A stretch of 64,000 nt of DNA from Escherichia coli (GCF_022846255.1 NZ_AP025682.1), one strand, 5' to 3'; positions 30,528 through 60,482 are shown, counted from the stretch's first letter. Program-made: numbers and translations. The notes: a model not told the origin generated them from the letters alone.

Positions 30528-30552
30528 GTGGGTGTTGTGTTTAGGGCCGGGG

Positions 30553-31770
30553 AGAGTCAGGGTAAGACTACGAAAGCCCGCTCCCAGCAAGGACTGACGC
30601 CAGGTAGTTTCTGTCCATGGCTGCTTTTCGCATCTTACGTCTTAACCCTGCCTTGAATACATTATCATTCGTTAAAATATTAATAGCGATGTGCCGTATC
30701 CCTGAAAATAATTCTGCTGCATTTCCTCTTCTTATTTTGCAGTCGTCTTCATTCATTACCACGTCCAGACGCCAGTGCAGCTTATTCTCCACGTGCCAGT
30801 GGTTTCGGATTGCTGTGGCGAACTTCTCTGCGGTTAAATCAGCAGAACTGATATAATATCTGACCGTCATTTCTGGCTCTTTCTTTTGTTCTGCTATTAT
30901 TGACCGAAAGGAGACTGCCACGCATAATTTCTTCAGACCTTTCCATTCAAACATGAAATCAATAAGTTCATCAGGGACATCGCAAACAATGTGAAGACGG
31001 ATTTCTTCTCTGCCGTGACTTTTTTCACTAATTGCGTAACTGTCATGCTCTGGATTATTTAATTCTTTCAGTGGGAATTTTTCCTCAAAGGCTTTATTAA
31101 GCCGCCCCTGATTTCCTTTTACAGCGAATAAATAATCACCGCCCTGTTTTTGTATCTTCTCTGCGATATCTTTCTGGCAACCCATCGCATCAGTTGTGAT
31201 AATTTTTCCTTTAATATCCAACATGTTAAGAAGTTCATGGATAGCTGTGATCTCATTGGATTTCTCATCCGTCCTGATCTGTCCGATGACCAGACTGTGC
31301 ATTGTTGAGAACGCACTAATGACATGAATCGCTCCCCTGCGGCGACTCTTGTCATAAGAATGCCGGAGCGTTTTTCCATCAATTGCAATAACGTCTTTAT
31401 CATCTGAAGAATGGCAGTCACGCATCCAGTTAATAAAGCACTCGTGAAATTTTGCAGGACTGATACAGGATACAACTCTGGCAATGGTATCGTGAACAGG
31501 AATACCATTTTCAAAATCACCATATTGCTTCAAAAAATCGAGATGTGTTTCCCCAAAATCCTCTATATCTTCCCAGCCTTCTGCACCAGAAATAACGGCA
31601 CAAATAGTCAACAGTAGAATACCCGATAATTTATGTTCCACTTTCCAGGCTTGTCTGTAATCGGGGATAATAGAAATATGTTCCATCAATTTTTTAAGTT
31701 CCATTTTGTTCTACTTAATTATGTAAGGAGTATTTGATCATGTATACGCAATAAAAAACAGCTTCAGGTA
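30553..31770 (-). mobile_element. H-repeat (H-rpt) element, ISAs1-family, copy A (intact)
   Basis: 1214-bp unit directly repeated at 31767-32985; encodes a 378-aa DDE transposase-like H-repeat-associated protein. Confidence 0.8.
30568..31704 (-). CDS. H-repeat-associated protein / ISAs1-family transposase
   Basis: 378 aa, [27 protein letters not shown]..., resembles the YhhI/YdcC H-rpt protein family. Confidence 0.85.
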
Positions 31771-32985
31771 ACAGGGCAAGATTACGAAAGCCCGCTCCCC
31801 GCAAGGACTGACGCCAGATAGTTTCTGTCCATGGCTGCTTTTCGCATCTTACGTCTTAACCCTGCCTTGAATACCTTATCATTCGTCAAAATATTAATAG
31901 CGATGTGCCGTATCCCTGAAAATAATTCTGCTGCATTTCCTCTTCTTATTTTGCAGTCGTCTTCATTCATTACCACGTCCAGACGCCAGTGCAGCTTATT
32001 CTCCACGTGCCAGTGGTTTCGGATTGCTGTGGCGAACTTCTCTGCGGTTAAATCAGCAGAACTGATATAATATCTGACCGTCATTTCTGGCTATTTCTTT
32101 TGTTCTGCTATTATGGACCGAAAGGAGACTGCCACGCATAATTTCTTCAGTCCTTTCCATTCAAACGTGAAATCAATAAGTTCATCAGGGACATCGCAAA
32201 CAATATGAAGACGGATTTCTTCTCTGCCGTGACTTTTTTCACTAATTGCGTAACTGTCATGCTCTGGATTATTCAATTCTTTCAGCGGAAATTTTTCCTC
32301 GAAGGCTTTATTTAGCCGCCCCTGGTTTCCTTTTACAGCGAATAAATAATCACCTCCCTGTTTTTGTATCTTCTCTGCAATATCTTTCTGGCAACCCATC
32401 GCATCAGTTGTGATGATTTTTCCTTTAATATCCAGCATGTTAAGAAGTTCAGGGATAGCTGTAATTTCATTGGATTTCTCATCCGTCCTGATCTGTCCGA
32501 TGACCAGACTGTGCATTGTTGAGAACGCACTAATGACATGAATCGCTCCCCTGCGGCGACTCTTGTCATAAGAATGTCGGAGCGTTTTTCCATCAATTGC
32601 AATAACGTCTTTATCATCTGAAGAATGGCAGTCACGCATCCAGTTAATAAAGCACTCGTGAAATTTTGCAGGACTGATACAGGATACAACTCTGGCAATG
32701 GTATCGTGAACAGGAATACCATTTTCAAAATCACCATATTGCTTCAAAAAATCGAGATGTGTTTCCCCAAAATCCTCTATATCTTCCCAGCCTTCTGCAC
32801 CAGAAATAACGGCACAAATAGTCAACAGTAGAATATCCGATAATTTATGTTCCACTTTCCAGGCTTGTCTGTAATCGGGGATAATAGAAATATGTTCCAT
32901 CAATTTTTTAAGTACCATTTTGTTCTCCTTAATTATGTAAGGAGTATTTGATCATGTATAAGCAATAAAAAACAGCTTCAGGTAA
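31767..32985 (-). mobile_element. H-repeat element copy B (tandem direct repeat of copy A)
   Basis: Near-identical to copy A with a 1214-bp offset, flanking sequence included. Confidence 0.8.
31782..32918 (-). pseudogene. H-repeat-associated transposase gene disrupted by a nonsense mutation
   Basis: GAG to TAG change at 32091-32093 relative to copy A splits the ORF into 275-aa and 100-aa pieces. Confidence 0.8.
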
Positions 32986-33147
32986 TGAGGAATATCTCAA
33001 TTTTTAAACATAAAATGCGAATTATTTAGTACAAAAAAGCAGCGTTACGTGATCTTTCCCTGACTGTGTAGGAAAACAGGTTTCCAAGCCCTTCCGAACC
33101 ATTCATGCCTGCAAACAAAAGCAGCTGCGGCGGCACCGCACTACCAC

Positions 33148-33468
33148 TTACTGTGACGTTATGCGCCCCGGACCACCGGCAGCAAGCGACGCCGCCGCAT
33201 CCTGAACTGCACCAGCCATATCCGAGATCCCTGCTGCTGCAGCGGCAGCCTGCGCAGCAGCTACTGCTGCTTTAACCAGACCTGACGGTTCCGGCAACGC
33301 ACCAAACAGGTCCGCCGCTGCCTGTTCTGCCATCTCCTCGGCGGCACCAGATACATCGGTTACGGCTGAACCTGTGCTCATACCGCCACTTTCGCCAGCT
33401 ATTGGTGGTGTGGTGATGACGGGTCCACCGTTTCCAGCTGGTTTGTTACCCGTAGATACAAAACTCAT
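33148..33468 (-). CDS. Hypothetical Ala/Gly-rich small protein
   Basis: 106-aa ORF, low-complexity composition; coding status uncertain. Confidence 0.3.
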
Positions 33469-33492
33469 GATATTTATTCCTTTAATATCGGA

Positions 33493-33864
33493 TTAGAATT
33501 TAGCGCCCGGCTGCCAGAAAAAATAAGAAATAACCCGCCACTGTCCATCTTTATAATGAAAAAAACATGTCAGATTTAAATCCCCCCGCAAATGCCAAAA
33601 CATTTCTTTGATGGGAATATTTCTGAATTCAGTATTCGTTGAGCGATAGGTGTTTTCAATTTCTATATAATACTCACCGACAAATTTATAACGAGGCTTT
33701 ATAAATTCATACGCTGGCTGACCATAGTTATTTAATAGAACATTCTCTTCAACTCCATTATACACACCACTCGCATTCAGATAAGCATGCCCAGGAATAT
33801 CAGACATGCTATTTTTCGCCCCACCCACTATCAAAAAAATTATCACAGCGTATATTAGTTTCAT
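33493..33864 (-). CDS. Small secreted protein, candidate immunity protein for the upstream zincin-like protein
   Basis: N-terminal signal peptide (MKLIYAVIIFLIVGGA); 4-nt overlap with the upstream gene. Confidence 0.5.
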   Translation of the reverse strand: MKLIYAVIIFLIVGGAKNSMSDIPGHAYLNASGVYNGVEENVLLNNYGQPAYEFIKPRYKFVGEYYIEIENTYRSTNTEFRNIPIKEMFWHLRGDLNLTCFFHYKDGQWRVISYFFWQPGAKF

Positions 33865-34601
33865 TTTTTTACGCTTTTCACAAAAAAATTAGAACCCGGA
33901 ACCATTCTATTTAACCGCTCAATGACATTTCTCATATAACGAGAGCGCAGTTCCATACCAATATTCATTAACGCACTGGCGTCCCCGGAGAATGGTGTAG
34001 TTGCTTTATCTGCATCATCACTATAGTATTCATCAGCAAGATATCCAATAATATGCCCAAGCTCGTGAGACAGCCCTATTTGCTCATGGCAAACTTTTGA
34101 TGAGCCAAGACATTTAGCTGCTGCAACTATATCTTTAGAGTCAAGTTCAACGTATCGACTATTCCAGACAATGGAACTCTGTCGAAAACTATTTGGATCA
34201 TCATTATCAATTTTAAACACCACCACATCCCAATACCCATGACGATCAGTCTGAATTATTTCTATTGAGAAAGATAAATCCTTACCATTAAACTTACTGG
34301 CAAACTCAGACTTCCCAGAAACGGATAAAAAAATCTTATTATTCCATGTTTGATTAATGACAAAAATAACTTTCCCATGAAAGGCATTTTTCTCCAAATC
34401 TGTCCAGTCAGTTTTTGCATCCCATCTTTTTATCCAATTATATTTCCATCTCAGCAACAATGAGATTGCACCATTTTCACGGTCAATTCTTAAATCTCCC
34501 CAGGCATCATTGTCCCTGATATATCGTTTATCCAGCATTAAGTCGTCATAAGCATCGTATGCCTGCTGAATAGCTTCATCATGAGAGTCACCCATGTTCA
34601 C
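33861..34601 (-). CDS. Putative zinc metallopeptidase (HExxH zincin), candidate T6SS effector
   Basis: HELGHIIGYLADEY motif; located in the T6SS effector array and paired with a signal-peptide protein. Confidence 0.5.
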   Translation of the reverse strand: MNMGDSHDEAIQQAYDAYDDLMLDKRYIRDNDAWGDLRIDRENGAISLLLRWKYNWIKRWDAKTDWTDLEKNAFHGKVIFVINQTWNNKIFLSVSGKSEFASKFNGKDLSFSIEIIQTDRHGYWDVVVFKIDNDDPNSFRQSSIVWNSRYVELDSKDIVAAAKCLGSSKVCHEQIGLSHELGHIIGYLADEYYSDDADKATTPFSGDASALMNIGMELRSRYMRNVIERLNRMVPGSNFFVKSVKK

Positions 34602-34924: not shown

Positions 34925-35398
34925 CTACTCATCCGTACAACCCAGCCCCCGGCGCTGAACCACTTCACTGGCAAACGTAGCTCCGGTTTTTTTCATTATT
35001 CCTTTTTGTATTTTTTGCAGCGCGGGAAATGAGATTCTCCTGCATGAATCCTCTTCCCATATATCACCAGTTACAGGACTAACTGAAAATAGTCCCCACA
35101 CATCTGTCGCTCCGGCGGAAGGAGAATCATAACCTACCCCAAAACTAAAATACCCAGGATGATACAGGTTACCTTTTTTATCTTTCAGAGAACCGTCAAG
35201 AAAAAACCCAGACAATTCCACATTATATTTTTCATTTTTTAGTGAAAAAACCAATAATGCCTGCGCCTGTATTTCAGTAAGACCTGACTGGTTAACAGTC
35301 GTTAGATCAAACCGCGGCACATTCCTGATAAGAATTTCAGCACAACAATTCACGGACACGACCATGAAAAGCAATACTGATATTAATTTACAGGACAT
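34925..35398 (-). CDS. Secreted protein, candidate immunity protein for the GH73-like effector
   Basis: Signal peptide (MSCKLISVLLFMVVSVNC); overlaps the upstream effector-like gene. Confidence 0.5.
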   Translation of the reverse strand: MSCKLISVLLFMVVSVNCCAEILIRNVPRFDLTTVNQSGLTEIQAQALLVFSLKNEKYNVELSGFFLDGSLKDKKGNLYHPGYFSFGVGYDSPSAGATDVWGLFSVSPVTGDIWEEDSCRRISFPALQKIQKGIMKKTGATFASEVVQRRGLGCTDE

Positions 35399-35853
35399 GT
35401 TATTCTCCGCTTAACCATATTAATCACCCACACTAACTCACTAGCATAACCGGTATGGCCGCCATTACTGTTTTTACCTGAATTAAAACCAGAATCAATC
35501 AATGCCTGCGCAAATTGCTCCGGAGATTTTTTATTTCTGACCGCATTACCAAATCGGATTGCAAAGGACTTTCCGCTAGTTGAAAAAAAGGTATAAGTGG
35601 CAACCCACACTTGATTACTCCCCAGCGGGTGAACCTGTCCTGACTGTAAAGGTGCCGGACCATGCATGGAAAAGTAGTTATTGTATTCTGTCGCGATTCT
35701 ACCCTGCCCGTAAAAGGACTCCTTTGCAGCAAGCCCCAGGATATTTTCCACAGGCACATCAAGTTGCTTAGCGATTAATTCACATTCTTTCAGATATTGC
35801 TGTACAAACCTGACTGCACCAGTGTTATTACAGGCTTTATCATAAGACCCCAT
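35383..35853 (-). CDS. Glucosaminidase (GH73/FlgJ-like) domain protein, candidate T6SS peptidoglycan glycoside hydrolase effector
   Basis: LGLAAKESFYGQGRIATEYNNYFSMHG resembles the FlgJ/GH73 catalytic region; no signal peptide; small (156 aa). Confidence 0.55.
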   Translation of the reverse strand: MGSYDKACNNTGAVRFVQQYLKECELIAKQLDVPVENILGLAAKESFYGQGRIATEYNNYFSMHGPAPLQSGQVHPLGSNQVWVATYTFFSTSGKSFAIRFGNAVRNKKSPEQFAQALIDSGFNSGKNSNGGHTGYASELVWVINMVKRRITCPVN

Positions 35854-35880: not shown

Positions 35881-36651
35881 TTAATGCGGCCGGATATCCA
35901 GCCGCAACGCATCCACATACCGCCCCTCGCTGTTCTGCTGCCAGAACCAGCCCTGCCCCTGCTGCGCCTGCGTCAGCATTTTGTCCGGCCAGCCCGGCCA
36001 CGGCAGGTGGCGCACACCGGGCAGTTCCACTACCGGCACGTCCGGCAGGCCGGTGAGTTCCCGGCTACGCTGCGGTACACGTCGTAAGCCGCGTAGCCAC
36101 TGCGCCCAGCGCGGCCCCGGTCGCCACATCGCCCAGAGCTGGTCTGTCTGCTCCGCCAGTCGACCGCAGCGTTCTGTCTGTGGTGAGACATGAGCTGCCG
36201 TCAACTGCGCCAGCCAGTACAGCCAGCCCTGTGTGTCATCCAGGCTCTCTTCCAGCCATTCCCGCCCGACACGCTGGTAAATCACCAGTGGCCACGGCCT
36301 GCCCGTACTGTCACGCGAGGCGGTCAGGACCCCGGTCAGCCACTCATCGCGCCCGCCAATGGGGAGAAATCCCGGCGACAGCACAAAACTCCACGGCAAT
36401 GGGTGGTGCTCCGGTAGTGCCGTTTTCTCACGTGGTGACAGGTGCATCCAGCCGTCATTTGTTCCGGCCTTCGCAGCATCCGTTCCTTCCGGCAGAACAA
36501 TATGCCGTCCCTGTCCCAGCCACGTTTGCTGGTTCAGCCACGCCTGCCACACCTGCCCTTCGTTCGCGCTCACTCGCCAGCGCACATAGTCCCGCTGGTC
36601 CGGCAGTCTGCCGAACATCGCCGGGGCCGATATCTCTGCCCGGCGCATCAC
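35881..36651 (-). CDS. tagF: T6SS-associated protein TagF (DUF2094 family)
   Basis: N-terminal FGRLPDQRDYVRWR resembles the TagF GKLPxxGDFVxR signature; Trp-rich; follows tssM as in SPI-6-type clusters. Confidence 0.6.
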   Translation of the reverse strand: MMRRAEISAPAMFGRLPDQRDYVRWRVSANEGQVWQAWLNQQTWLGQGRHIVLPEGTDAAKAGTNDGWMHLSPREKTALPEHHPLPWSFVLSPGFLPIGGRDEWLTGVLTASRDSTGRPWPLVIYQRVGREWLEESLDDTQGWLYWLAQLTAAHVSPQTERCGRLAEQTDQLWAMWRPGPRWAQWLRGLRRVPQRSRELTGLPDVPVVELPGVRHLPWPGWPDKMLTQAQQGQGWFWQQNSEGRYVDALRLDIRPH

Positions 36652-36836: not shown

Positions 36837-37313
36837 TTAATTCAGTTCCCAGAACCAGATTTCCTTGCAGCTAAAATAGCAATGTGAATGACATATAGCA
36901 CCTGTGGTAGAAGGCTCAATAAGATCTATATGACCGCCACCGTAACCCGTAATTTTCCAGAAAAAGACCACTCCTCTTTTATTACTGGTGTCTGTTTTAA
37001 ATTTTTCTGAGTCACACCAGATAACTGGTCTTCCAAAAACATCAGCTCGGGAAAGCTGATCTGCCAGTAATTTCGCACCGGTTTCTATTTTCTTCCCTTT
37101 CCAGTCACCACTTTTGATCGTCAGTCGCCCGTTAAAGCTGACGCCTGATTTAATCAGCGCCAGACTCATACGTGTGGCACAGGTATTTACATAACCAGCA
37201 TTTTGCTGTTGCAGTGCTTCATAGTTATAACCCACTTCACTGTACAAAACATCACCATCAATCTGAACTGATGAGTAATGGTTTTTTTTAAGTGTGAAAA
37301 ATGAAGGTTTCAT
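36837..37313 (-). CDS. Tae4-like type VI amidase effector (papain-like Cys/His peptidoglycan amidase)
   Basis: AGYVNTCATRMSLAL (Cys) and GGGHIDLIEP (His) resemble the Tae4 catalytic motifs as I recall them; 158 aa, no signal peptide. Confidence 0.55.
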   Translation of the reverse strand: MKPSFFTLKKNHYSSVQIDGDVLYSEVGYNYEALQQQNAGYVNTCATRMSLALIKSGVSFNGRLTIKSGDWKGKKIETGAKLLADQLSRADVFGRPVIWCDSEKFKTDTSNKRGVVFFWKITGYGGGHIDLIEPSTTGAICHSHCYFSCKEIWFWELN

Positions 37314-46007: not shown

Positions 46008-46010
46008 AAT

Positions 46011-50284: not shown

Positions 50285-50345
50285 AATCCTTCATTTCCTT
50301 ATCAGTGAGCCGACGACCACCAGGGGAGCGGTTCGACGGTACAGT

Positions 50346-50636
50346 TTAAAAATCATACGCAGAGAGTATTTTTATAATCTCTTTGTTTTCTTTGTACTTT
50401 TCCCGCAGCACAGGGAGTGATTTCTTTGCCGGAGGACACCAGGTATCAACCCCCTTTTCGATGTCTCTTTTATCCTTCTCTGGTAAAGAACTGTCCCATT
50501 CACCAGCAAGATGCTGGCACATTTCCGCATTACTCAGAAAATGCTGCACATCCTGTGGTAAAGGCGGTTCCCCCTGAACACAGAAAGCGAAAATCATTAA
50601 CAGGAATGTCAACAACATCGGATAACGAAATGCCAT
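50346..50636 (-). CDS. Small secreted protein, candidate immunity protein for the M15-like peptidase
   Basis: Signal peptide (MAFRYPMLLTFLLMIFAFCVQG); directly follows the peptidase gene. Confidence 0.5.
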   Translation of the reverse strand: MAFRYPMLLTFLLMIFAFCVQGEPPLPQDVQHFLSNAEMCQHLAGEWDSSLPEKDKRDIEKGVDTWCPPAKKSLPVLREKYKENKEIIKILSAYDF

Positions 50637-50638
50637 AC

Positions 50639-51202: not shown

Positions 51203-51214
51203 AAGGATGCTCCA

Positions 51215-53848
51215 TTAATCCGTGTCAAAAATAATCTGTTCATCCTCATCAACACGAATGCGGATTTGCGTGATGGCCGTTTTCTCTGTCATCGCCTGCA
51301 GCCAATAACGGGACAGTTGTGGGAGGATATGTTGTTCGATATAGCCGATGAGCAAACGAGCGCCGGTTTCGTGCATCGGGCAGCGCGACACAATATGCGT
51401 AATCAGTTCATCGCCATACACCAGTGAAACGCCATGCTGCTCCGCCATCCGATCCATCAATCTGCCAAGATGCAGGCGGGCAATAACACCACGCGCGGTC
51501 TCATCCAGCGGTAAATAAGGAATAACCGTCACACGCCCCAGGAAAGCCGCCGGGAAGTGTTTACGTAACTCCGGCATTAACGCCTCTTTTAACCCTGCCG
51601 AATCGGGCATCAGCGCCGGATCCTCACAGAGCTGGCTGATAAGTTCCGCCCCCGCGTTAGTCGTCAACAACAGCGTGGTATTTTTGAAATCGATGTGGAC
51701 ACCTTCGCCATCTTCCATCGCCCCCTTATCAAACACCTGGAAGAACAGCTCGTGGACGTCGTGATGGGCTTTTTCAATTTCATCCAGCAATACCACGCTC
51801 CAGGGATGGCGGCGTACCGCTTCCGTCAACACGCCGCCTTCGCCATAGCCGACGTAGCCGGGCGGCGCGCCTTTCAGAGTGGAGACTGTGTGAGACTCTT
51901 GATACTCGCTCATGTTGATGGTGATCAGATTCTGTTCACCGCCATAGATTGCTTCTGCCAGTGCCAGCGCGGTCTCAGTCTTGCCTACTCCGGACGGCCC
52001 GGCCAGCAAAAAGACACCCACTGGCTTACGCGGGTCACCTAAACCCGCCCGCGCGGTCTGGATACGCTCGCCAATCTGCGCCAACGCATCCATCTGCCCG
52101 GTAACACGCTGCGCCAAACGGGTGGGCAATTCCAGTATCTGACTGGCTTCATCTTTCACCATCCGTCCGGCGGGAATACCGGTCCAGTCGGAGACAATCT
52201 CTGCCACCACGGTTGCACTGACTTCCGGGTACACGACGGGGTTTTCACCCTGCCAGCCTCTTAATGCCGTTTCTGCCTGTTGTAGAGTGATTTCGTCGCG
52301 CTCGCCAGGCGCTGCGCCGCGTTGCTCCTGTAAACTGCGAACCAACTCCAGTTCCTGCTGCCACCGCGCTTCGGTGTCAGAAAGATCGGCATTAAGCGAT
52401 ATAATCCGCGCCGTCAGTACATCGCCCCGCTCCGAGCGGATACCCATTTTTTCCTGCTTTAATAACAACTCCTGCTCCAGTTCGGCAGCGTTGAGCTGCT
52501 GGCGCAGATACTGGACTCTCGCAGGCGGGGTATGCAGCGACAGCGCTACACGGGCCGCCGCCGTATCCAGCAGGCTGATGGCCTTATCCGGTAGTTGCCG
52601 GGCCGGAATGTAACGGTGAGAAAGCTGTACAGCGGCGCGCACGGCCTCATCAAGAATCAGGACATCATGGTGTTCTTCAAGCGTGGTGACTAATCCGCGC
52701 ACCATCTCAACAGCCGCAACCTCTTCCGGCTCAGCAACCTGCAATACCTGAAAACGCCGGGTCAGCGCCGGATCCTTTTCGATATGGCGTTTGTACTCGC
52801 TCCAGGTGGTTGCGCCGATGGTGCGCAGAGTGCCACGCGCCAGCGCCGGTTTCAGCAGGTTGGCAGCATCCCCCGTACCGGATGTACCACCAGCGCCCAC
52901 CAGGGTGTGAACTTCATCAACAAAAAGTATCACCGGCTGCGCCGAGCGCGCGGCCTCTTCCAGCAAAGCTTTCAGGCGGGATTCAAATTCACCCTTCATG
53001 GACGCCCCAGCCAGCAGCGCTCCAACATCCAGTGACAGCAACCGCACGTTACGCAGTGAAGGCGGCACTTCCCCCCCGGCAATCGCCAGCGCGAATCCTT
53101 CCACCACTGCCGTTTTCCCGACCCCCGCCTCGCCGGTCAGCAGCGGATTGTTCTGGCGACGGCGCAGCAGAATATCCGTCATAGTACGGATCTCGTGTTC
53201 GCGTCCGGTGACCGGATCGATATTGCCTTCACGGGCCAGCGCAGTCATGTCCTGGCAGTATTTCGCCAGCGCGGATTTACTTCCGGTTGATTCGCCGGCA
53301 AAGACCTGGCTAGCTTCCCCCGGTACTGCAAAATTTAAATCCGAGCCGTCATAAGGTATTTCTGTTAATTCAGGAGATGAAGCGATTAAAGACGGAAGAA
53401 TATCTAATAGTTCATCTACCGGTAGCCCTGCCAATGGCGCACAGATATTTTTTAACACCCGATACAATTCTGGCGTGGTTAACCAGGCAAGTAATAACCA
53501 TCCACTACGAATTTTTTGATCACCAAAGCGGATACTTGCCAACATCCAGGCTTTTTCAACAGAAAGATCGATATGATGGGAAAAATCGTTAATTACACTC
53601 GCTCCGGCAGGCAATATATTCAATTGCTGAATTAACGCCTTCTCAACATCAGCAGATGTTATTTGATAATGTCGAAGCACATTGTGAATGTCATTCTCTG
53701 GTTGTTGTATTAACTGATGCAACCAATGCGTCAGTTCGACATAAGGATTAGCGCGTAATTTACAGAACGTCGTCGCAGATTCCAAAGATCTAAACAAAGA
53801 TTTGGTTAGCTTTCCATACAGTGCACTGCGCGAAACAGGAGTGTCCAT
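51215..53848 (-). CDS. clpV: T6SS AAA+ ATPase ClpV (TssH)
   Basis: 877 aa; two AAA+ modules with Walker A motifs GEAGVGKT and GPSGVGKT; ClpB-like without middle-domain expansion. Confidence 0.9.
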   Translation of the reverse strand: MDTPVSRSALYGKLTKSLFRSLESATTFCKLRANPYVELTHWLHQLIQQPENDIHNVLRHYQITSADVEKALIQQLNILPAGASVINDFSHHIDLSVEKAWMLASIRFGDQKIRSGWLLLAWLTTPELYRVLKNICAPLAGLPVDELLDILPSLIASSPELTEIPYDGSDLNFAVPGEASQVFAGESTGSKSALAKYCQDMTALAREGNIDPVTGREHEIRTMTDILLRRRQNNPLLTGEAGVGKTAVVEGFALAIAGGEVPPSLRNVRLLSLDVGALLAGASMKGEFESRLKALLEEAARSAQPVILFVDEVHTLVGAGGTSGTGDAANLLKPALARGTLRTIGATTWSEYKRHIEKDPALTRRFQVLQVAEPEEVAAVEMVRGLVTTLEEHHDVLILDEAVRAAVQLSHRYIPARQLPDKAISLLDTAAARVALSLHTPPARVQYLRQQLNAAELEQELLLKQEKMGIRSERGDVLTARIISLNADLSDTEARWQQELELVRSLQEQRGAAPGERDEITLQQAETALRGWQGENPVVYPEVSATVVAEIVSDWTGIPAGRMVKDEASQILELPTRLAQRVTGQMDALAQIGERIQTARAGLGDPRKPVGVFLLAGPSGVGKTETALALAEAIYGGEQNLITINMSEYQESHTVSTLKGAPPGYVGYGEGGVLTEAVRRHPWSVVLLDEIEKAHHDVHELFFQVFDKGAMEDGEGVHIDFKNTTLLLTTNAGAELISQLCEDPALMPDSAGLKEALMPELRKHFPAAFLGRVTVIPYLPLDETARGVIARLHLGRLMDRMAEQHGVSLVYGDELITHIVSRCPMHETGARLLIGYIEQHILPQLSRYWLQAMTEKTAITQIRIRVDEDEQIIFDTD

Positions 53849-54180
53849 CTGTTACACCTAATGATGTAAGAACATATAAATGATACATAAACATAACTGT
53901 ACCGATTAAAACTTCTAATTAATAGAATTATCAAAAAGGCCGAATGAAACAATGATGCATATCACAGAACACAATGTAATATAGCAGGTAGTATCTTTTT
54001 CATGGTGATATTCAATAGAGCAAGCCAATTTCATACATACAATGAATATATTAAATTAAAAATCGCCACTATATATTTCCGCGAAAACTTATATTGATAA
54101 AGTAAATTGATCAGCATTGCTTATCTAAAAATTTAGAAAACTTATTCTTTTGAAATAAACATTCTACACAGTGATACACA
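53849..54180. promoter_or_regulatory. AT-rich divergent promoter region between clpV and fha operons
   Basis: ~330-bp intergenic region, strongly AT-rich relative to flanking coding sequence, between the two divergent T6SS operons. Confidence 0.5.
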
Positions 54181-55095
54181 ATGAAACCAAATATTACGTG
54201 GGGACTCCAAAAAATACAGGCGCACGGGATCGCCGATAACACAATTTACGCGACTGAAGGAACCCAAATTATCTTCACCGTTACCTCACCCTGGATTCCT
54301 GTTTTTGAGGTGAATGATGATGTAAAGATTGCCCTCAGTCTGACCCGCCACGAAGAAGCATGGTGGATTATCAATCAGTCTACCGAATATTGCTGTACGG
54401 TAAACGACCAGATTGTGGAACCTCATCACCGTATGCGTCTGAATGAAGGCGACCTGATAGAATGGGGGTTATCTTCATGGTGCCTTGTGCACGGCAATCC
54501 ATCATCTCCGGACCTGAGCGCAGTAAAAACGACATCGCAGACTGCCACCATGTCGGAAACAATAACCGAATATCTGGATCTGGATTGGTTCAGGCAGCAG
54601 CATCTGACATCACAAAATCCATTCGATATCATTCCTGTTCATGGAGCCTCCTCCACTGGAGAAGATGCTAAAAAAGAAAATGCCCTGACTCGACTTTATC
54701 AGGAATACCGCGAGGCGTTGTTATCTCCTGAACAAGATCTTCATCGCCATGCTGATCCTTTTCCTTTTAACGAAGAGCCCTCCTCACAGGATCTGGATTC
54801 ATTGCGTGATCTGGTCACTGAAGCCGAGACATTGCAGGATATGGTCACTGGCGGGTTAAGCATTGACGCTATTCTCGATGTCCTGGACGCCACCGGCGAA
54901 GGGGAAACCGCCTGGCCTGCCGAAAAGACACCCCCAGATATCCTGCACCTGCTATCCCCGGAATGCGCACCGGAAACAGCGCATAACACCGTTCTACCCG
55001 ACCTGACACGCAAAGAGCATCGCATCATTGGCATTGACAGCCATTATCGGATAAACCCGGCACAACACGGAGAGATATCTCATGACAAACAATAA
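54181..55095 (+). CDS. FHA-domain T6SS accessory protein (Fha/TagH-like)
   Basis: 304 aa; first gene of the + operon; N-terminal region consistent with an FHA fold; assignment by position and composition. Confidence 0.55.
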   Translation: MKPNITWGLQKIQAHGIADNTIYATEGTQIIFTVTSPWIPVFEVNDDVKIALSLTRHEEAWWIINQSTEYCCTVNDQIVEPHHRMRLNEGDLIEWGLSSWCLVHGNPSSPDLSAVKTTSQTATMSETITEYLDLDWFRQQHLTSQNPFDIIPVHGASSTGEDAKKENALTRLYQEYREALLSPEQDLHRHADPFPFNEEPSSQDLDSLRDLVTEAETLQDMVTGGLSIDAILDVLDATGEGETAWPAEKTPPDILHLLSPECAPETAHNTVLPDLTRKEHRIIGIDSHYRINPAQHGEISHDKQ

Positions 55096-55912
55096 CGAGC
55101 TACCGGCTACCCTGTCGGCGCTGCTGCGGGATTATTCCGTGGCGGAGGGCATTCAAATGGCAGAGCAGCAGGTCAGGATGTACCCGGCGCAGGCCTCCCG
55201 CCGCCACAGCCTATTTCAGTTATTGTGCGTGGCAGGCTACTGGTCGCGGGCACTGCAACAGATCCAGCTATGCGCCCGGATGGACGCAAATTATACCCGC
55301 GAAGCGCAGGTATTTGGCGAGCTGATACGCTGTGAGATATACCGCCACGCCTGCTTTCAGGGAGAACAGCGGCCCGATTTTATTCTCCCGCCGCCCGCCT
55401 GGATGGAGGATCTGCTGACCGCCCTCGCCTGTAACGCTCGTGGTGAAGCGCAGGAAGCTGACGCCCACCGCAGCCGCGCACTTGAGGCCATAACAGATAC
55501 TGCAGGGCAGTGGAATGGCGGCGCATTTGACTGGATTAGCGACAGCGACTCCCGTACCGGTCCGGTACTCGAACTCATCGCGGGCGGAGTATATATCTGG
55601 CTGCCGTTTTCACAAATCTGTTCGCTAAAATCGCCGCGGCCTGCGCATCTGACCGATTTGATCTGGAAACCCGTCAACGTCACACTGAATAATGGCGACA
55701 CACACAGTGCCTGGCTGTTTTCCCGCTACAGCGGCTCTGAAAAGGCTGCCGACTCCCTGCGTCTGTGCCGGGAAACGGTCTGGCAGGACGGGCCGGGAGA
55801 GACTCTGGTACAGGCGCTGGGTCAGAGGGTGTGGCTCACCGGTCACGGCGATATCAGCCTGCTGGATTTGTCCACCTGTACCTTTAACACCGCTGAAGGA
55901 AGCGACGCGTGA
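55082..55912 (+). CDS. tagJ: T6SS accessory protein TagJ (ImpE/SciE family)
   Basis: 276 aa, immediately upstream of tssE as sciE is in SPI-6-type clusters. Confidence 0.55.
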   Translation: MTNNNELPATLSALLRDYSVAEGIQMAEQQVRMYPAQASRRHSLFQLLCVAGYWSRALQQIQLCARMDANYTREAQVFGELIRCEIYRHACFQGEQRPDFILPPPAWMEDLLTALACNARGEAQEADAHRSRALEAITDTAGQWNGGAFDWISDSDSRTGPVLELIAGGVYIWLPFSQICSLKSPRPAHLTDLIWKPVNVTLNNGDTHSAWLFSRYSGSEKAADSLRLCRETVWQDGPGETLVQALGQRVWLTGHGDISLLDLSTCTFNTAEGSDA

Positions 55913-56403
55913 GCGCTTCCCGCCAGCGTCCGGGCAATCACCTGCTGCCCACGCTGTTTGACCGCCTGTGTGATGATGCCCCAAACCAGAAACGCGACCA
56001 CGATATCAGCGTCAGCCCGGTTCAGCTTAAGGAGATCATTCGCCGGGATTTGTCATTTCTGCTCAACACCGTCAGCCATGAAGATGATATTGATGCTGCA
56101 CGTTATCCGGACGCGGCAGCGTCCGTACTGAACTACGGCCTGCCGCCACTGGCGGGCAGCTTTCTGTATGAACACAAGTGGGACGATATTCGCAGGGCCA
56201 TTTTGCGTACCATCATCCGGTTTGAACCCCGGCTGAAAGCGTCCACCCTGCAAATCATCCCACTTCAGGATGAGCGCCACCAGAGCGGCCATAACACATT
56301 ACAGTTTGAAATTCGCGGCGAGATCCTCACGCAGCCCTACCCGATGGCATTCCGGGTACGCAGCGCGCTGGATATGGAACAGAGCCGCATTACGTTTTTT
56401 TAA
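55909..56403 (+). CDS. tssE: T6SS baseplate protein TssE (gp25-like)
   Basis: 164 aa; LFDRLCDD... gp25-like signature. Confidence 0.85.
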   Translation: MSASRQRPGNHLLPTLFDRLCDDAPNQKRDHDISVSPVQLKEIIRRDLSFLLNTVSHEDDIDAARYPDAAASVLNYGLPPLAGSFLYEHKWDDIRRAILRTIIRFEPRLKASTLQIIPLQDERHQSGHNTLQFEIRGEILTQPYPMAFRVRSALDMEQSRITFF

Positions 56404-56418
56404 TTCAGAGAGAAACCG

Positions 56419-58302
56419 ATGGATCCACGGCTACTGGAATACTACAACCGCGAACTGAGCTATCTGCGGGAAACGGGAGCCGAATTTGCCGCCCGTCATC
56501 CTAAAGTCGCCGCCCGACTGGGTATGCAGGGAACGGATATTGCCGATCCGTATGTGGAGCGAATGGTCGAGGCCTTCAGCTTCCTGACCGCCCGCACGCA
56601 GCTAAAAATTGACGCTGAATTCCCCCGTTTCACCCAGCGTCTGCTGGAAGTGGTCAGCCCCAATTACGTCACACCCACGCCCTCAATGAGCGTGGCGCAG
56701 CTTCATCCCGATCCGGAAGAAGGCGATCTGGCGAAGGGATTCACCGTCCCGCGCAACACGGCCTTTTTTTCCGCCATTCCGGAAGGCGAAAGTACCGCCT
56801 GCCAGTTTCGTAGCAGCCAGAATGTGACGCTGTGGCCGCTTGCCATCGAAGAGGTGCGGCTGACCGCCGCGCCGCCGGATATGCCTGCCCTGCACCGCTA
56901 CCTGCCAGCCAACATTCACGTCGCTGGTGCGCTGCGTATTACCCTGCGCACCTTTGGTGAACTGACGTTCAGTCAGCTTGCAGGGCTGAACAAGCTGCCA
57001 TTTTATCTCTGCGGCGAGGAGCGCACGGCCTCACACCTGTTCGAACTACTGCATACCAGCGCCATCGCGAGCCTGGCTGGCATTCCGGGGCATTTTGACG
57101 GCGCACTGGATGTGAATCTGAAACAGCCCGTTATGTACGAAGGCCTGGATCCGGATCAGGGACTGTTGCCGCTGGCGTGGAATGTGTTTCACGGCCATAA
57201 CCTGCTACATGAATATTTTACCTGTCCGGAACGCTTCTTTTTTTTCACCCCGACAGGCCTGTCTGACGGGTTACAGAAAATTAACGGCGGCGTGGCGGAG
57301 ATTGTTATCCTGCTGAACCGCCTGCCGCCGGACTGGCTGATCCACCAGACAAACGCGGCACAGTTCAGCCTGTTCTGTACCCCGGTTATCAACCTGTTTC
57401 CCCGCGTCGCCGCCCGGATCGATGTCACGCACAGCACGACGGAACAGCATCTGGTGGTGGACAGAACCCATCCGCTGGATTATGAGGTGTTCTCGGTCCA
57501 AGAAGTGGAAGGGCTGGAAACTGACACCACACGGAAGATGGCCTTTCGCCCGCTCTACCACACCCGCAATAATGATGAAGGCAATCACGGACGTTATTTT
57601 TCCCTGCGCCGGGAGCCGCGCCGGTTGTCGGAAAATGCCCGCCGCTATGGCACCCGCACCTCCTATACAGGATCAGAAGTGTTCCTGTCGCTGGTTGACC
57701 AGTATGAAGCGCCGTACCCGGAAAATCTGCGCCATATCACCATCACGGCTATGGTCACCAACCGCGATCTGCCCTGTCTTATTGCCCGCAATGGACGGGA
57801 CGATCTGACCGTGGATGCGGCCATCCCGGTGGCGGGTGTGGGGCTTATCCGTCCGCCGCGTCCGCCGCAGCCTCCGCTGGCTGAACGTGAAATGGCCTGG
57901 CGGTTGATCCGCCAGTTATCCTTTAACTATCTGCCGCTGGCCGATCTGGATCACCGTACCGGTGGTCAGGCGCTGCGCGATCTGCTTAACCTGTTTATTC
58001 CGGCGCATGACAGTCCGCAGTCGCGCCAGGTGCGCAGCCTGATTGGCTGCAACACCACCCCGGTCACCCGCCGTCTGCCCGGTTCCGGGCTGCTGGTCTA
58101 TGGGCGCGGCGTCAGTTGTGAACTGACCGTGGATGAGGAGGGGTTCTCCGGTATCAGTCCGTATCTGTTCGGTCTGGTGTTGGAGCACTATATCGCCCGT
58201 CATGTTTCCATTAATACCTTCTCGCAGATGACGCTGCACAGCATGCAGCGCGGCAAAATTATGACCTGGCCTGCCAGGACGGGACAGCGGGGAAGCGTAT
58301 GA
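56419..58302 (+). CDS. tssF: T6SS baseplate protein TssF
   Basis: 627 aa; N-terminus MDPRLLEYYNRELSYLRETGAEFAARHPKVAARL typical of TssF. Confidence 0.9.
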   Translation: MDPRLLEYYNRELSYLRETGAEFAARHPKVAARLGMQGTDIADPYVERMVEAFSFLTARTQLKIDAEFPRFTQRLLEVVSPNYVTPTPSMSVAQLHPDPEEGDLAKGFTVPRNTAFFSAIPEGESTACQFRSSQNVTLWPLAIEEVRLTAAPPDMPALHRYLPANIHVAGALRITLRTFGELTFSQLAGLNKLPFYLCGEERTASHLFELLHTSAIASLAGIPGHFDGALDVNLKQPVMYEGLDPDQGLLPLAWNVFHGHNLLHEYFTCPERFFFFTPTGLSDGLQKINGGVAEIVILLNRLPPDWLIHQTNAAQFSLFCTPVINLFPRVAARIDVTHSTTEQHLVVDRTHPLDYEVFSVQEVEGLETDTTRKMAFRPLYHTRNNDEGNHGRYFSLRREPRRLSENARRYGTRTSYTGSEVFLSLVDQYEAPYPENLRHITITAMVTNRDLPCLIARNGRDDLTVDAAIPVAGVGLIRPPRPPQPPLAEREMAWRLIRQLSFNYLPLADLDHRTGGQALRDLLNLFIPAHDSPQSRQVRSLIGCNTTPVTRRLPGSGLLVYGRGVSCELTVDEEGFSGISPYLFGLVLEHYIARHVSINTFSQMTLHSMQRGKIMTWPARTGQRGSV

Positions 58303-59294
58303 GCGACGATTTCACTCAGGCGCAGGAACCCCCCTGGCGTTACGGTTTTCTGAACCTGATGCGCCGCGTGGATGTGCAGTTGTGTACTGTTCCGGCAGGC
58401 AACACCTGGCAACCACGGATGGAAAAATTTCGCCTCGGACAAACTCCCGCGCTGACCTTTGCGCCACGGGAAATCGCCAGTGTGAGCTGGCAGGAAGAGC
58501 GGCTGCACATCAGTTTGTACAGTCTCGGGCTGTGGGGGCCGAACGGTCCACTGCCGCTGCACTACACCGAACTGGCGCGCAACCGGACTGAAAGCCGAAG
58601 AGACCCGACGCTAACCCGTTTTTCTGATCTTTTTCATCACCGCTGGCTGACGCAGTTTTACCAGGCATGGCGCAGCGCCCAGTCCGCTGGGGGCGGTCTG
58701 GATAAACCACAACATGACCGTTTTGCCTTTTATATCGCCAGCCTCAGCGGGCAGGATTTGCGGGAGAGCGCCGACAGCCCGTTGCCGGATCACGCTCGCC
58801 TGGCGGCATCGGCCCATCTGGTGCGTGAGTCCCGCAATCCGGACGGTCTGGCCACCACGCTGGCGCACTATTTCGGTGTACCTTTCCGGATACAGGAGTA
58901 TGTCCTGCACTGGATAGCCGTGGCGGACGATGAGATCACCCGGCTGGGGATGCCAGCCCCCTCTTCCGTTATTGGCAACGGTGCACTCATCGGCCAGGCC
59001 GTGCCGGACATGCAGTATAAGTTCCGGCTGGTTATCGGCCCGCTGACGCTGGAGGATTACCGACGTTTTCTGCCTGGCGGCAATAACCTGCCAGTCCTGA
59101 CAGAACTGGTCCGCGCCTTTAGCGGTTTTGAATACTGCTGGGAAATTGAGCTACAGCTAAAGCCCCACGCCGCCCCTCCGGCTGTTACCGGTGGTTCGTA
59201 CCAACTGGGCTGGACCGCATGGGCGGGTAAAGCCATGCACGAAAACCCGGTGACGGGCATGATTTTCGAACCAGAACACTACCTGGCGCACTGA
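58299..59294 (+). CDS. tssG: T6SS baseplate protein TssG
   Basis: 331 aa; overlaps the tssF stop; TssG-like N-terminus. Confidence 0.85.
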   Translation: MSDDFTQAQEPPWRYGFLNLMRRVDVQLCTVPAGNTWQPRMEKFRLGQTPALTFAPREIASVSWQEERLHISLYSLGLWGPNGPLPLHYTELARNRTESRRDPTLTRFSDLFHHRWLTQFYQAWRSAQSAGGGLDKPQHDRFAFYIASLSGQDLRESADSPLPDHARLAASAHLVRESRNPDGLATTLAHYFGVPFRIQEYVLHWIAVADDEITRLGMPAPSSVIGNGALIGQAVPDMQYKFRLVIGPLTLEDYRRFLPGGNNLPVLTELVRAFSGFEYCWEIELQLKPHAAPPAVTGGSYQLGWTAWAGKAMHENPVTGMIFEPEHYLAH

Positions 59295-59304
59295 GGATAA
59301 TTTA

Positions 59305-60351
59305 ATGGATACATCCCTGTCTGACCCAATTTCGGAAGAATGCCCCTGCGGCCCGGATCTGGAGTACGATCCGGAATACCTGCTACTGTTCACGCGCGCC
59401 GCACAGCGTGAAGAAGCGCAATACGGCGATTTTGTCAGTACGCCGGAAACCATTAACTGGGCGGAGCTTGAGCGGGATGCCTGCCGCCTACTGACGCGCA
59501 GCAAAGATATCCGCATTCTGGTTGTCCTGCTGCGCTGCCGTATCCAGCAGGCCGGTGTCAGGGGACTGGCGGAGGCGCTCGCGCTGCTGGAAACGTTGTG
59601 CGCTACGTACCCGAACGCCATCCACCCGCAACTGCTCGCGACTGAAGATATCACCGCCGAAGAGGCGGCAGTGGCACGTAGTAACGCCCTGGCGGCGTTG
59701 CTGGACCATGAAGGCGTAATAGCGGATATTCGTGGCATTACACTGTCAAACAATGCTGCCATACGCCTTCAGGTACGGGATGTGGAGCGTTCGCTGTCTG
59801 CATCACGCCCGGCGGATGCGCTGGCACCAGAATCGGTACGCCAGCAACTGGCCGACCTGGAGGCGCGCGGCACACTGCCGCTGGATGCCTTTCGCCAGGC
59901 CGCAGAGACCACTGAGCGGCTGCAACGCCATGCGCGTGAAACGCTGAATGACCAGGCACCGAACCTATCCCGTCTGACACAATTGCTGGCCCTGTTGCCG
60001 GGAGCGATACGGACCACCACGCCGGAGATCCTGCCACAACCAGTGGCTGAACAGGCGGAGAGCACCACCATCGTTCATACTGAACAGATATCATCAGAGC
60101 AGATTGCGCTACCGGTGCATATCGCGGAGGAAATATCACCGATGTCCGGCGCAGAACCCCGGCAGATCCGCGACCGGAACGACGCGCTGGAACGCCTGCG
60201 TGTCATCCGTCGCTGGTTTGAGCACAGCGAACCGAGCAGCCCGACCATTCCTTTGCTGCGCCAGGCAGAACGCCTGGTCGGAAAACGCTTCTCGGAGGTA
60301 ATAAATGAAATTCCAGTAGAACTGCTGGAAAAATGGGATGCGCTGGAGTAA
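59305..60351 (+). CDS. tssA: T6SS protein TssA (ImpA N-terminal domain)
   Basis: 348 aa; ImpA_N-like N-terminus (CPCGPDLEYDPEY...). Confidence 0.85.
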   Translation: MDTSLSDPISEECPCGPDLEYDPEYLLLFTRAAQREEAQYGDFVSTPETINWAELERDACRLLTRSKDIRILVVLLRCRIQQAGVRGLAEALALLETLCATYPNAIHPQLLATEDITAEEAAVARSNALAALLDHEGVIADIRGITLSNNAAIRLQVRDVERSLSASRPADALAPESVRQQLADLEARGTLPLDAFRQAAETTERLQRHARETLNDQAPNLSRLTQLLALLPGAIRTTTPEILPQPVAEQAESTTIVHTEQISSEQIALPVHIAEEISPMSGAEPRQIRDRNDALERLRVIRRWFEHSEPSSPTIPLLRQAERLVGKRFSEVINEIPVELLEKWDALE

Positions 60352-60357
60352 CAGAAG

Positions 60358-60389
60358 TGGCCAGAATTTATATTATCTGGCCATTTTTT
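60358..60389 (+). terminator. Rho-independent terminator after tssA
   Basis: tggccaga...tctggcca stem-loop followed by TTTTTT. Confidence 0.65.
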
Positions 60390-60435
60390 AAATCATATTC
60401 GTTTTACTTGCGGAGTGAAAAATTCTCGCTTCACC

Positions 60436-60468
60436 AAAACGACGAAAGCCCGAATCAGTAATGATTCG
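60436..60468 (-). terminator. Hairpin downstream of aspV (tRNA terminator)
   Basis: aaagcccgaatc-agtaat-gattcgggcttt perfect stem-loop just 3' of the tRNA on the minus strand. Confidence 0.6.
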
Positions 60469-60482
60469 GGCTTTCTGAATAT

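Follow-up and report, generated by a model that had tools for sequence, protein, structure and literature searches.

The SPI-6 T6SS of Salmonella is a subtype i3 system that adjoins aspV (PMC11669294; PMC2907695), and Tae2, Tae4, Tge2, and Tlde1 form its conserved VR1-2 effector set (PMC11669294; PMC13224477). Most E. coli genomes carry at the aspV site either an unrelated i1 T6SS, typified by the SPI-19-like OI#7 of O157:H7, or nothing. The i1 system is found in 38-55% of complete E. coli genomes, whereas a SPI-6-type system is present in only ~2% of them (117 of 5,426 genomes; ~37 at aspV and ~89 at aspU). Systems of this kind are known; the SPI-6-type member has been little described in E. 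coli. Here, we analyzed a window of 64,000 nucleotides from E. coli (GCF_022846255.1 NZ_AP025682.1) whose aspV-yafV interval harbors such a gene cluster (Table 1). In our assessment, this segment is quite likely the E. coli orthologue of the SPI-6 T6SS (i3), an ancient, antibacterial system that has lost its spike module through a deletion adjacent to an ISAs1 element.

Table 1. Features of the aspV-yafV interval, with positions counted from the first nucleotide of the window.
Feature	Position	Strand	Evidence or remark
yafV	29748..30527	+	left core-genome flank
ISAs1/ISEc1 copy A	30557..31771	-	intact 378-aa transposase; adjoins yafV
ISAs1/ISEc1 copy B	31772..33062	-	transposase split, 100 + 275 aa; abuts vgrG break
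vgrG (tssI) remnant	33063..33468	-	first ~135 of 737 codons, frameshifted near codon 101
orf123, small, candidate immunity protein	33493..33864	-	translation; signal peptide
orf246, candidate metallopeptidase effector	33861..34601	-	HELGH (HExxH) motif in translation; family matches weak only
Tgi2PP-type immunity protein	34925..35398	-	RefSeq annotation of homologues; signal peptide
Tge2-like glucosaminidase effector	35383..35853	-	Pfam PF01832 2.2e-7; RefSeq annotation in relatives
TagF accessory	35881..36651	-	TIGR03373 41.7 bits
Tae4-family amidase effector, Ssp1-like	36837..37313	-	PDB 4BI3 (Ssp1) 1.7e-57
Tandem Rap1a-type immunity protein	37310..38005	-	Pfam PF18602 twice
TssM membrane-complex subunit, intact	38252..42118	-	TIGR03348 1064 bits
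Putative Tldi1-type immunity protein	42446..42901	-	position; signal peptide
Tlde1-domain effector (L,D-carboxy/transpeptidase type)	42891..43259	-	Pfam PF10908 2.3e-12
TssL, long form with OmpA-like domain	43351..44667	-	NF005999, TIGR03349, TIGR03350
TssK baseplate	44664..46007	-	TIGR03353 401 bits
TssJ lipoprotein	46011..46565	-	TIGR03352
Hcp/TssD tube	46612..47103	-	TIGR03344 61.3 bits
Tai2-type immunity protein (STY0301 family)	47277..47729	-	NF042415; signal peptide
Tae2 amidase effector (BPSL0067 family), in VR1	47742..48149	-	NF033857; PDB 6WIN 4e-32
TssC sheath large subunit	48200..49714	-	TIGR03355 715 bits; best PDB match 5N8N_B, 804 bits
TssB sheath small subunit	49739..50284	-	TIGR03358 190 bits
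orf96, small, putative immunity partner of orf187	50346..50636	-	translation; signal peptide
orf187, LAS-type (VanY/M15-like) zinc peptidoglycan peptidase, putative effector	50639..51202	-	homologues, triad, AF2, Foldseek
TssH/ClpV ATPase	51215..53848	-	TIGR03345 1216 bits
Divergent intergenic region between the two operons	53849..54180		ORF orientation
TagK accessory	54181..55095	+	NF033418 553.5 bits
TagJ (ImpE) accessory	55082..55912	+	Pfam PF07024 1.1e-40
TssE baseplate	55909..56403	+	TIGR03357 68 bits
TssF baseplate	56419..58302	+	TIGR03359 618 bits
TssG baseplate	58299..59294	+	TIGR03347 334 bits
TssA (ImpA family, short form)	59305..60351	+	TIGR03363 149.5 bits (cutoff 160.85); 70% identical to mainstream Salmonella TssA
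aspV terminator hairpin	60444..60475		sequence and empty-site alignment; common to empty-site genomes; island begins ~60436
tRNA-Asp (GTC), aspV	60483..60559	-	ARAGORN; Rfam RF00005 67.7 bits; island anchor

Alignment with E. coli M3, in which the site is truly empty, delimits an island of 29.9 kb (30535-60436) between yafV and aspV. The original prediction had placed it at 30540-60482; these coordinates are essentially right, except that the right edge does not coincide with the 3' end of the tRNA and lies ~46 bp beyond it, after the aspV terminator hairpin. This terminator is common to 757 empty-site genomes (14%), which still carry the 46-bp tRNA-proximal sequence. The prediction of a genomic island that adjoins aspV on its 3' side and is missing from K-12 was thus borne out. 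Homology of K-12 to the window ends at 30848 and 60476, and K-12 possesses at this site, as anticipated, only a few small genes (yafT-ykfM-yafU'-yafF', ~2.1 kb); these, however, are a remnant of the i1 island and not an empty site. The first gene beyond the 3' end of aspV is tssA, while at the other boundary yafV is followed by the predicted H-rpt elements, of which we found two ISAs1/H-rpt copies; an ISAs1 element next to yafV, the position of copy A, occurs in ~60% of E. coli. The GC content is a mosaic, with 56.7% in the T6SS core genes, 41.1% in the cargo, and 50.9% in the flanks.

Twelve of the 13 core components of an i3/SPI-6-type cluster are encoded intact in two divergent operons, TssI/VgrG being represented by a stub. 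Apart from this stub, the HMM searches uphold the Tss assignments made beforehand: curated models support TssB, C, E, F, G, H, J, K, L, and M, as well as Hcp, TagF, and TagK, with TssA scoring just under the cutoff, and Pfam supports TagJ. One label had to be changed, since the gene of the tssA operon named fha in the original prediction matches TagK; no FHA protein is encoded in the island. The divergent intergenic region contains no match to the sigma-70 consensus. Homology suggests a T6SS function for the island. As far as can be judged from the protein families, the TssJLM membrane complex and the TssEFGK baseplate would nucleate an Hcp tube inside the TssBC sheath, contraction of the sheath would push this tube into a neighboring bacterium, and ClpV would recycle the sheath; TssA, TagF, TagJ, and TagK would serve as accessory proteins.

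The designation of the system as SPI-6-like proved well founded. The island and the S. enterica locus are identical in gene order, orientation, and core flank (the tssA-aspV-dnaQ junction), with the common order tssA-G-F-E-tagJ-tagK in one operon and clpV-tssB-tssC-VR1-hcp-tssJ-K-L-...-tssM-...-tagF-...-vgrG-eagR-rhs in the other, so that the SPI-6 arrangement with TagJ, TagK, and TagF is found next to aspV. Gene lengths are nearly identical as well, and TssB/C/F/G/ClpV share 84-96% of their amino acids with the Salmonella proteins (TssC 92%, TssB 96%, TssF 90%). By bit scores and pairwise identity, the island's sheath and baseplate belong with i3 references; TssC, for instance, scores 804 bits against 5N8N_B, which we take to be TssC1 of the P. 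aeruginosa H1-T6SS, and 376 bits against VipB. The layout had also been thought to match that of the aspV-linked T6SS of E. coli, a statement that does not hold for the common one. OI#7 of O157:H7 occupies the same aspV-yafV interval, and its distal end consists of VgrG-Rhs-ISAs1 next to yafV, as also seen in relatives of the present strain, features that would suit an ordinary i1 island. Yet its gene order is different, it starts with yafT beside the tRNA, it has TagH/FHA where the island has TagK/TagJ, its core proteins are just 27-43% identical (TssC 43%, TssB 32%, TssF 27%), and megablast returned no match between the island and the O157 i1 cluster. We regard the identity of the island with the ordinary E. 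coli aspV T6SS as refuted, with practically no probability left to it.

The cargo comprises six leaderless effectors, each preceded or followed by an immunity protein; across these six pairs, signal peptides are present in the immunity proteins and absent from the effectors. As in SPI-6, members of the Tae2, Tae4, Tge2, and Tlde1 families reside in effector-immunity modules of the variable regions. The Tae2 assignment is supported by a structure entitled 'Type 6 secretion amidase effector 2' (PDB 6WIN), whereas the HMM search yielded no family match for the putative Tldi1-type protein. The protein encoded by orf187 has 926 homologue clusters, mostly with the homologous segment as a C-terminal domain, and its zinc triad H120/D127/H181 (H-x6-D...H) is invariant in 39 homologues. 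Its Pfam match is not significant; the AF2 model (pLDDT 97) retrieves LAS peptidases as all of the top 19 PDB matches in Foldseek, at TM-scores of only 0.37-0.54. With the zinc triad and the modeled LAS fold, orf187 is a LAS-type enzyme whose activity is predicted. Every identifiable effector belongs to a peptidoglycan-directed family (Tae2, Ssp1-type Tae4, Tlde1, Tge2-like glucosaminidase, LAS-type zinc peptidase), which points to an antibacterial system directed at the periplasm, where the effectors would attack the peptidoglycan of target bacteria.

Strain 2014C-3338 carries a near-identical cluster with all 13 core genes. Relative to this strain, 7.2 kb next to ISAs1 are deleted, a loss that takes in eagR, the PAAR-Rhs gene, and the greater part of vgrG; the deletion junction is present in no other complete genome. 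The original prediction, which described the insertion as degraded, missed this ISAs1-adjacent loss of vgrG-eagR-rhs, the degradation that matters. The loss has probably disabled the machine and left six immunity genes, which would still protect against kin carrying the system. Small T6SS effectors of the kind retained here are usually carried by Hcp. One can envisage a T6SS that still functions in this strain, with a VgrG (and PAAR) from elsewhere in the genome delivering Hcp-dependent peptidoglycan effectors; the deletion is recent, and all remaining core genes retain their full length, with 99.7-100% identity to the strain that has the intact cluster. However, only a frameshifted stub is left of the cognate vgrG, eagR and PAAR-Rhs are gone, no second vgrG lies within the window, and VgrGs of i1 or i2 systems would not be expected to fit an i3 baseplate. 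We consider continued function rather unlikely: without a substitute VgrG from elsewhere in the genome, the T6SS can probably not fire.

The age that had been proposed for the insertion agrees with the divergence of the locus. In comparison with Salmonella, dS amounts to 0.70-1.93 for the T6SS genes and to 0.96-1.45 for the flanking dnaQ, rnhA, yafS, and gloB genes, values near or above 1 being close to saturation; the comparison with Citrobacter is similar. Since the T6SS genes match the flanking core genes in this respect, the locus is ancient in the Escherichia/Salmonella/Citrobacter group and no recent import. A recent horizontal transfer of SPI-6 from Salmonella to E. coli would be in keeping with the same gene order and insertion site, but it is effectively refuted by these dS values and by the nucleotide identity of 63-86% per gene, and we view it as extremely improbable. 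Judged by dS, a recent transfer from Salmonella or Citrobacter is excluded, while vertical descent and an equally old transfer would both fit. The tssA-tRNA-Asp-dnaQ adjacency recurs in C. amalonaticus and in three further Escherichia lineages, and Escherichia genomes share a homologous tssA-tRNA junction. In Salmonella and Citrobacter, the non-coding junctions could not be aligned to the window, and a single ancestral insertion is therefore not established. Within Escherichia, dS is higher for the T6SS (0.13-0.87) than for the flanks (0.10-0.46), and a nucleotide difference of 5-9% separates the two forms of the system in E. coli; this indicates transfers between lineages and a history that is not purely vertical. 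Relative to strain 2014C-3338, 14 kb of the island contain only 2 mismatches, whereas the two flanks show 10-43 per kb; homologous recombination via the conserved flanks dnaQ-aspV and ISAs1-yafV appears to carry alleles from strain to strain.

As predicted, the window holds neither an integrase nor a repeat of the tRNA 3' end: none of its ORFs encodes an integrase, and 14-25-nt pieces of the 3' 50 nt of the tRNA have no other copy in it when 1-3 mismatches are allowed. The junction is not inside the tRNA 3' end, nor is there a direct repeat of this end at the far boundary. In 89 E. coli genomes, the same T6SS adjoins aspU, a tRNA gene identical to aspV; there, an integrase disrupted by IS3 separates tssA from the tRNA, and the aspU copies of E. 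coli M3 and Salmonella hold remnants of one P4-type integrase in this position. Two Salmonella contigs have an Escherichia-like aspU copy with a remnant of this integrase (93% aa identical) whose divergence is close to that of the T6SS. The aspU sister form is linked to a P4-type integrase, and these copies favor a classical integrative island, in which the T6SS entered the 3' end of a tRNA-Asp gene by means of a P4-type tyrosine integrase and the aspV copy subsequently lost integrase and att repeats; site-specific integration is the simplest explanation for the same island in the same orientation at two tRNA-Asp genes. Such an origin is nevertheless somewhat unlikely. A tRNA-derived repeat is absent from the window, from strain 2014C-3338, and from the integrase-bearing M3 locus, and an integrase is also missing from strain 2014C-3338; tssA adjoins aspV without an integrase in Salmonella, Citrobacter, and three Escherichia lineages; and the integrase at aspU may be part of another islet that arrived later. 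Moreover, an aspV junction past the shared terminator is a poor fit to integration into the tRNA 3' end. The degraded integrative island of the original prediction gains indirect support from the integrase remnants of the aspU copies. Our broader proposal, which we advance tentatively and at somewhat less than even probability, is that the SPI-6-type system represents a fourth E. coli T6SS subclass (i3) missed by reference-based surveys; it would be the ancestral aspV occupant in Escherichia, Salmonella, and Citrobacter, later replaced by i1 or deleted in most E. coli, with its 46-bp tRNA-proximal sequence left behind in the empty-site genomes, and would exist also in a form that an integrase carries from one tRNA-Asp gene, and from one genus, to another. 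This rare system, which occupies the tRNA-Asp site used in Salmonella, would then be the fourth T6SS type of E. coli.

Against the background of this kinship with SPI-6, the E. coli island has traits of its own. TagK and TssA are just 56% and 70% identical to their Salmonella counterparts, an extra orf187/orf96 pair is located between clpV and tssB, Tlde1 lies upstream and the Tae4/Rap1a pair downstream of tssM, the saf/tcf fimbrial operons are absent, and VR3 (vgrG-eagR-rhs) is deleted in the present strain. The Ssp1-like effector aligns end to end with Ssp1 of Serratia marcescens, and its neighbor carries Rap1a domains; in contrast to the Serratia pair, the immunity partner here carries Rap1a twice in tandem, and the two genes are situated between tssM and tagF of the E. 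coli cluster. The P. aeruginosa H1-T6SS, the i3 archetype, provides by far the closest solved sheath to the island TssC. It shares with the island the TagJ and TagF accessories and the delivery of periplasm-acting peptidoglycan hydrolases, whereas the island has TagK instead of the Fha/PpkA/PppA/TagQRST signaling genes.

Alignment to the aspV site of Escherichia coli strain M3, which is truly empty in that yafV is followed by aspV after ~98 bp, placed the extent of the island at 30535-60436. The corresponding aspV-yafV interval of K-12 MG1655 contains only yafT, ykfM and the pseudogenes yafU and yafF, and K-12 homology to the window stops at 30848, 280 bp into the first ISAs1 element (copy A, equivalent to yafF), and at 60476. 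Hence, the gene coordinates and the K-12 alignment agree with the original prediction of a tRNA-Asp-linked island bounded by tssA/aspV and by yafV/H-rpt elements. Its further statement that neither an integrase nor a repeat of the tRNA 3' end is present also held: family searches with the window ORFs revealed no integrase encoded in the island, and no 14-25-nt piece of the 3' 50 nt of the tRNA recurred in the window when 1-3 mismatches were allowed.

Features of the island, its flanks and its cargo (window positions)
Feature	Position	Strand	Remarks
yafV	29748-30527		Other flank; followed by two ISAs1 (H-rpt) elements
ISAs1 copy A	30557-31771		Intact 378-aa transposase
ISAs1 copy B	31772-33062		Split transposase
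orf246/orf123 pair	33493-34601		
orf187/orf96 pair	50346-51202		
Tae2/Tai2 pair			PDB 6WIN, 4e-32; STY0301 family
Tlde1 and partner			Pfam PF10908
Ssp1-type Tae4 and tandem Rap1a protein			
Tge2-like glucosaminidase and Tgi2PP			
tssA	59305-60351	plus	Adjoins 3' end of aspV
tRNA-Asp(GTC) aspV	60483-60559	minus	ARAGORN and Rfam

The 46 bp 3' of aspV (60437-60482; 41868-41913 of the empty-site locus L009), including the terminator hairpin, are common to empty-site genomes and to those occupied by the SPI-6-type (subclass i3) T6SS, while K-12 and O157, which carry the common aspV-linked T6SS (subclass i1) or its remnant, diverge 7 bp past the tRNA. Since these 46 bp are shared with empty-site genomes and a repeat was not found, the aspV junction in the window does not look like the product of integration into the tRNA. 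None of the occupied loci compared contains the 46-71 bp that are peculiar to the empty site; empty sites may derive from i3-occupied ones by deletion, or may represent the target into which i3 was inserted. The yafV-ISAs1 junction is present in 3,259 complete E. coli genomes. A 94-nt "tRNA-His" called by ARAGORN inside tssF (58085-58178) was rejected, as Rfam finds no tRNA there; the same call at L003 34652-34745 (the M3 aspU locus) and L004 10695-10788 marks it as a recurrent false positive in a conserved coding stretch.

The plus-strand operon encodes TagK, TagJ (ImpE), TssE, TssF, TssG and TssA (NCBIfam and Pfam), and the minus-strand operon ClpV, TssB, TssC, Hcp, TssJ, TssK, TssL, TssM and TagF (NCBIfam). 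The gene previously labeled fha is tagK, its product scoring 553 bits against the TagK equivalog. Between the two divergent operons, a simple scan of the intergenic region for promoters and terminators returned nothing. Situated between the core genes are six pairs, each composed of a leaderless protein and a small neighbour with a signal peptide; the GC content of this cargo averages 41%, compared with 57% for the core and 51% for the flanks.

Pfam yielded nothing significant for orf246 or orf187, and PDB sequence searches with these two proteins and the Tlde1-like protein gave no match. Among cluster representatives, 926 contain the orf187 domain; most have it at the very C-terminal end, in proteins that reach 5,317 aa, a position that is typical of polymorphic-toxin architecture. 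Its residues H120, D127 and H181 are invariant, and the top 19 Foldseek hits of the structural model (pLDDT 97) are all LAS zinc peptidoglycan peptidases (Ply500, VanY, VanX, LdcB). The orf187 protein is a predicted LAS-type (VanY-like) zinc peptidase domain and a putative effector. Its partner orf96 is a small, Cys-containing protein with a signal peptide. The pair is missing in Salmonella SPI-6 and truncated in the Escherichia lineages E69 and E1V33. The orf246 protein carries a HELGH zinc-metallopeptidase motif; its gene and that of orf123, which has a signal peptide, lie just upstream of vgrG, and with 41% and 59% aa identity to their M3 versions the two proteins are fast-evolving.

What the original prediction overlooked is the loss of the spike module. 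VgrG, the thirteenth core component, is missing: only the first ~135 of 737 codons of vgrG remain (33063-33468), and this stub, which has a frameshift near codon 101, is joined to ISAs1 copy B. Relative to strain 2014C-3338, which carries a near-identical intact cluster, copy B replaces 7.2 kb comprising most of vgrG, a DcrB-related (EagR) gene and the genes for a 1,368-aa Rhs protein and its partner. The vgrG-copy B junction occurs in no other complete genome, all matches beginning at ~33060, so that the deletion is private and recent. A fresh tandem duplication of ISAs1 was ruled out by 29 differences between the two copies over 1,214 positions. Outside the island, the window consists of the Flag-2 locus and core genes, with no second vgrG among them. 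Because VgrG is required for baseplate assembly, and only a stub of its gene remains, the T6SS of this strain is probably inactive unless complemented from elsewhere, with its six immunity genes kept. It would thus exemplify disarmament without loss of protection.

How long the system has resided at aspV was assessed from synonymous divergence (Nei-Gojobori). Between the window and Salmonella, dS is 0.70-1.93 for eight T6SS genes and 3.4 for tagK, and 0.96-1.45 for the flanking genes dnaQ, rnhA, yafS and gloB; the values against Citrobacter amalonaticus are similar. The similarity of T6SS and flank dS excludes a recent import from either genus, and the system appears to be about as old at the aspV site as the genera themselves, dS saturation barring finer dating. 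The order tssA-tRNA-Asp-dnaQ also exists in Escherichia MOD1-EC7003, E69 and E1V33 and in C. amalonaticus, and homology of the non-coding junction extends over its full length within Escherichia (77-98% identity).

The history of the locus has not been purely vertical. Within Escherichia, dS of the T6SS genes (0.13-0.87) exceeds that of the flanks (0.10-0.46); the E. coli forms located at aspV and at aspU, an identical tRNA-Asp gene after rrnH ~8 kb away, are 5-9% apart at the nucleotide level, compared with 1.7-2.7% for their core flanks; and 14 kb of the island (44001-58000) show 2 mismatches to 2014C-3338, as against 10-43 per kb in both flanks. From these three observations we infer that the island has been swapped between strains by homologous recombination via its conserved flanks; its central part is far younger than the DNA on either side, which fits import by recombination. 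Elsewhere in the window, the Flag-2 lateral-flagella locus (1-23079) is 94.5% identical to M3 and the neighbouring core genes 97-98%; at Flag-2, 2014C-3338 has only a lafU/flhA' deletion remnant.

The core of the M3 cluster at aspU is 91-95% identical to the window at the nucleotide level, with other cargo in the variable slots, and between tRNA and tssA it carries higA and a P4-type integrase gene split by IS3. In this copy (L003 15160-19025 and 39677-42217) tssM is frameshifted as well. Coverage of the 6.6-kb tssA-to-aspU segment, IS3 included, reaches at least 80% in 89 complete genomes; this points to one widespread, possibly inactive lineage. Two Salmonella enterica contigs (L013 11648-12740, Salmonella GCA_005934015.1; also L014) possess an Escherichia-like copy at aspU followed by 5S rRNA, with 86-90% nucleotide identity to M3 and only 78-82% to mainstream SPI-6, pointing to an exchange of the island between genera. 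Both contain a 116-aa remnant of the M3 integrase (93% aa identity over 88 residues; 88.6% nucleotide identity). As remnants of one integrase occur in M3 and in Salmonella, the integrase-linked form is present in two genera and has diverged along with the T6SS. The aspU integrase may have moved the T6SS, or it may belong to a separate islet; an internal att repeat was not found in the M3 locus.

Of 5,426 complete E. coli genomes, 117 were positive for the i3 system by megablast. The tssA-aspV-dnaQ junction is present in ~37 genomes and the M3 arrangement in 89; 757 have an empty aspV-yafV site, and the i1 core occurs in 2,073-2,960. A search with the K-12 segment (2,977 genomes) was not used to count remnants, since yafT-ykfM-yafU adjoin aspV in K-12-like remnants and i1 genomes alike and the two are inseparable. 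The aspV-yafV interval is thus a site with alternative occupants (i1, i3, remnants or none), and a tractable case in which to study the swapping of whole weapon systems by recombination. Published accounts of T6SS diversity in E. coli admit only subclasses i1, i2 and i4b, and so does the largest survey, of 131,610 genomes (PMC12282107); i3 was invisible to it because the screen demanded a nucleotide identity of 85% or more to a reference from one of these three subclasses. A SPI-6-type system equipped with a complete peptidoglycan-degrading effector set is carried by about 2% of complete E. coli genomes, whose sources are human, animal and environmental; they would accordingly score as lacking it. 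We did not find an i3/SPI-6-like T6SS of E. coli described in the freely accessible literature searched, which yielded only the above survey and unrelated papers.

The original prediction equated the island with the usual aspV-linked T6SS of E. coli, and this proved wrong. That system, OI#7 of O157 Sakai, has been termed SPI-19-like (PMC2907695); it has yafT beside the tRNA, another gene order and a TagH/FHA protein, and its core proteins are only 27-43% identical to those of the window. Both ends of the Sakai i1 island (L010 887-37387) have counterparts in K-12 (L002 3336-5379), one being yafT and the other the yafF pseudogene, which is a fragment of ISAs1, so that the K-12 site looks like a deletion remnant of an O157-type i1 island, not a naive site.

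The predicted likeness to Salmonella SPI-6 is real, and most of the original interpretation stands. Seeding a scan of species-representative genomes with TagK gave just 5 loci, none of them from Salmonella, because its TagK has diverged too far to be caught by exact-peptide seeds; the S. enterica locus was reached instead via TssA homologues. Its order is tssC-tssB-clpV with divergent tagK-tagJ-tssE-tssF-tssG-tssA, its gene lengths are near those of the window, and tssA is followed by tRNA-Asp, dnaQ, rnhA, yafS, gloB and mltD. Amino acid identities are 96% for TssB, 92% for TssC, 90% for TssF and 84% each for TssG and ClpV. Against 5N8N, the Pseudomonas aeruginosa H1 sheath, the window TssC has a score of 804 bits, and against Vibrio cholerae VipB one of 376. 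SPI-6 belongs to subtype i3 (PMC11669294), and its published layout, with VR1 after tssC, VR2 around tssM, VR3 formed by tssI-eagR-rhs, and the conserved effectors Tae2, Tae4, Tge2 and Tlde1 (PMC11669294; PMC13224477), is that found in the island. With gene order, flank and effector families in common, the likeness can be upgraded to orthology. The island encodes a known kind of machine, in a member little described in E. coli.
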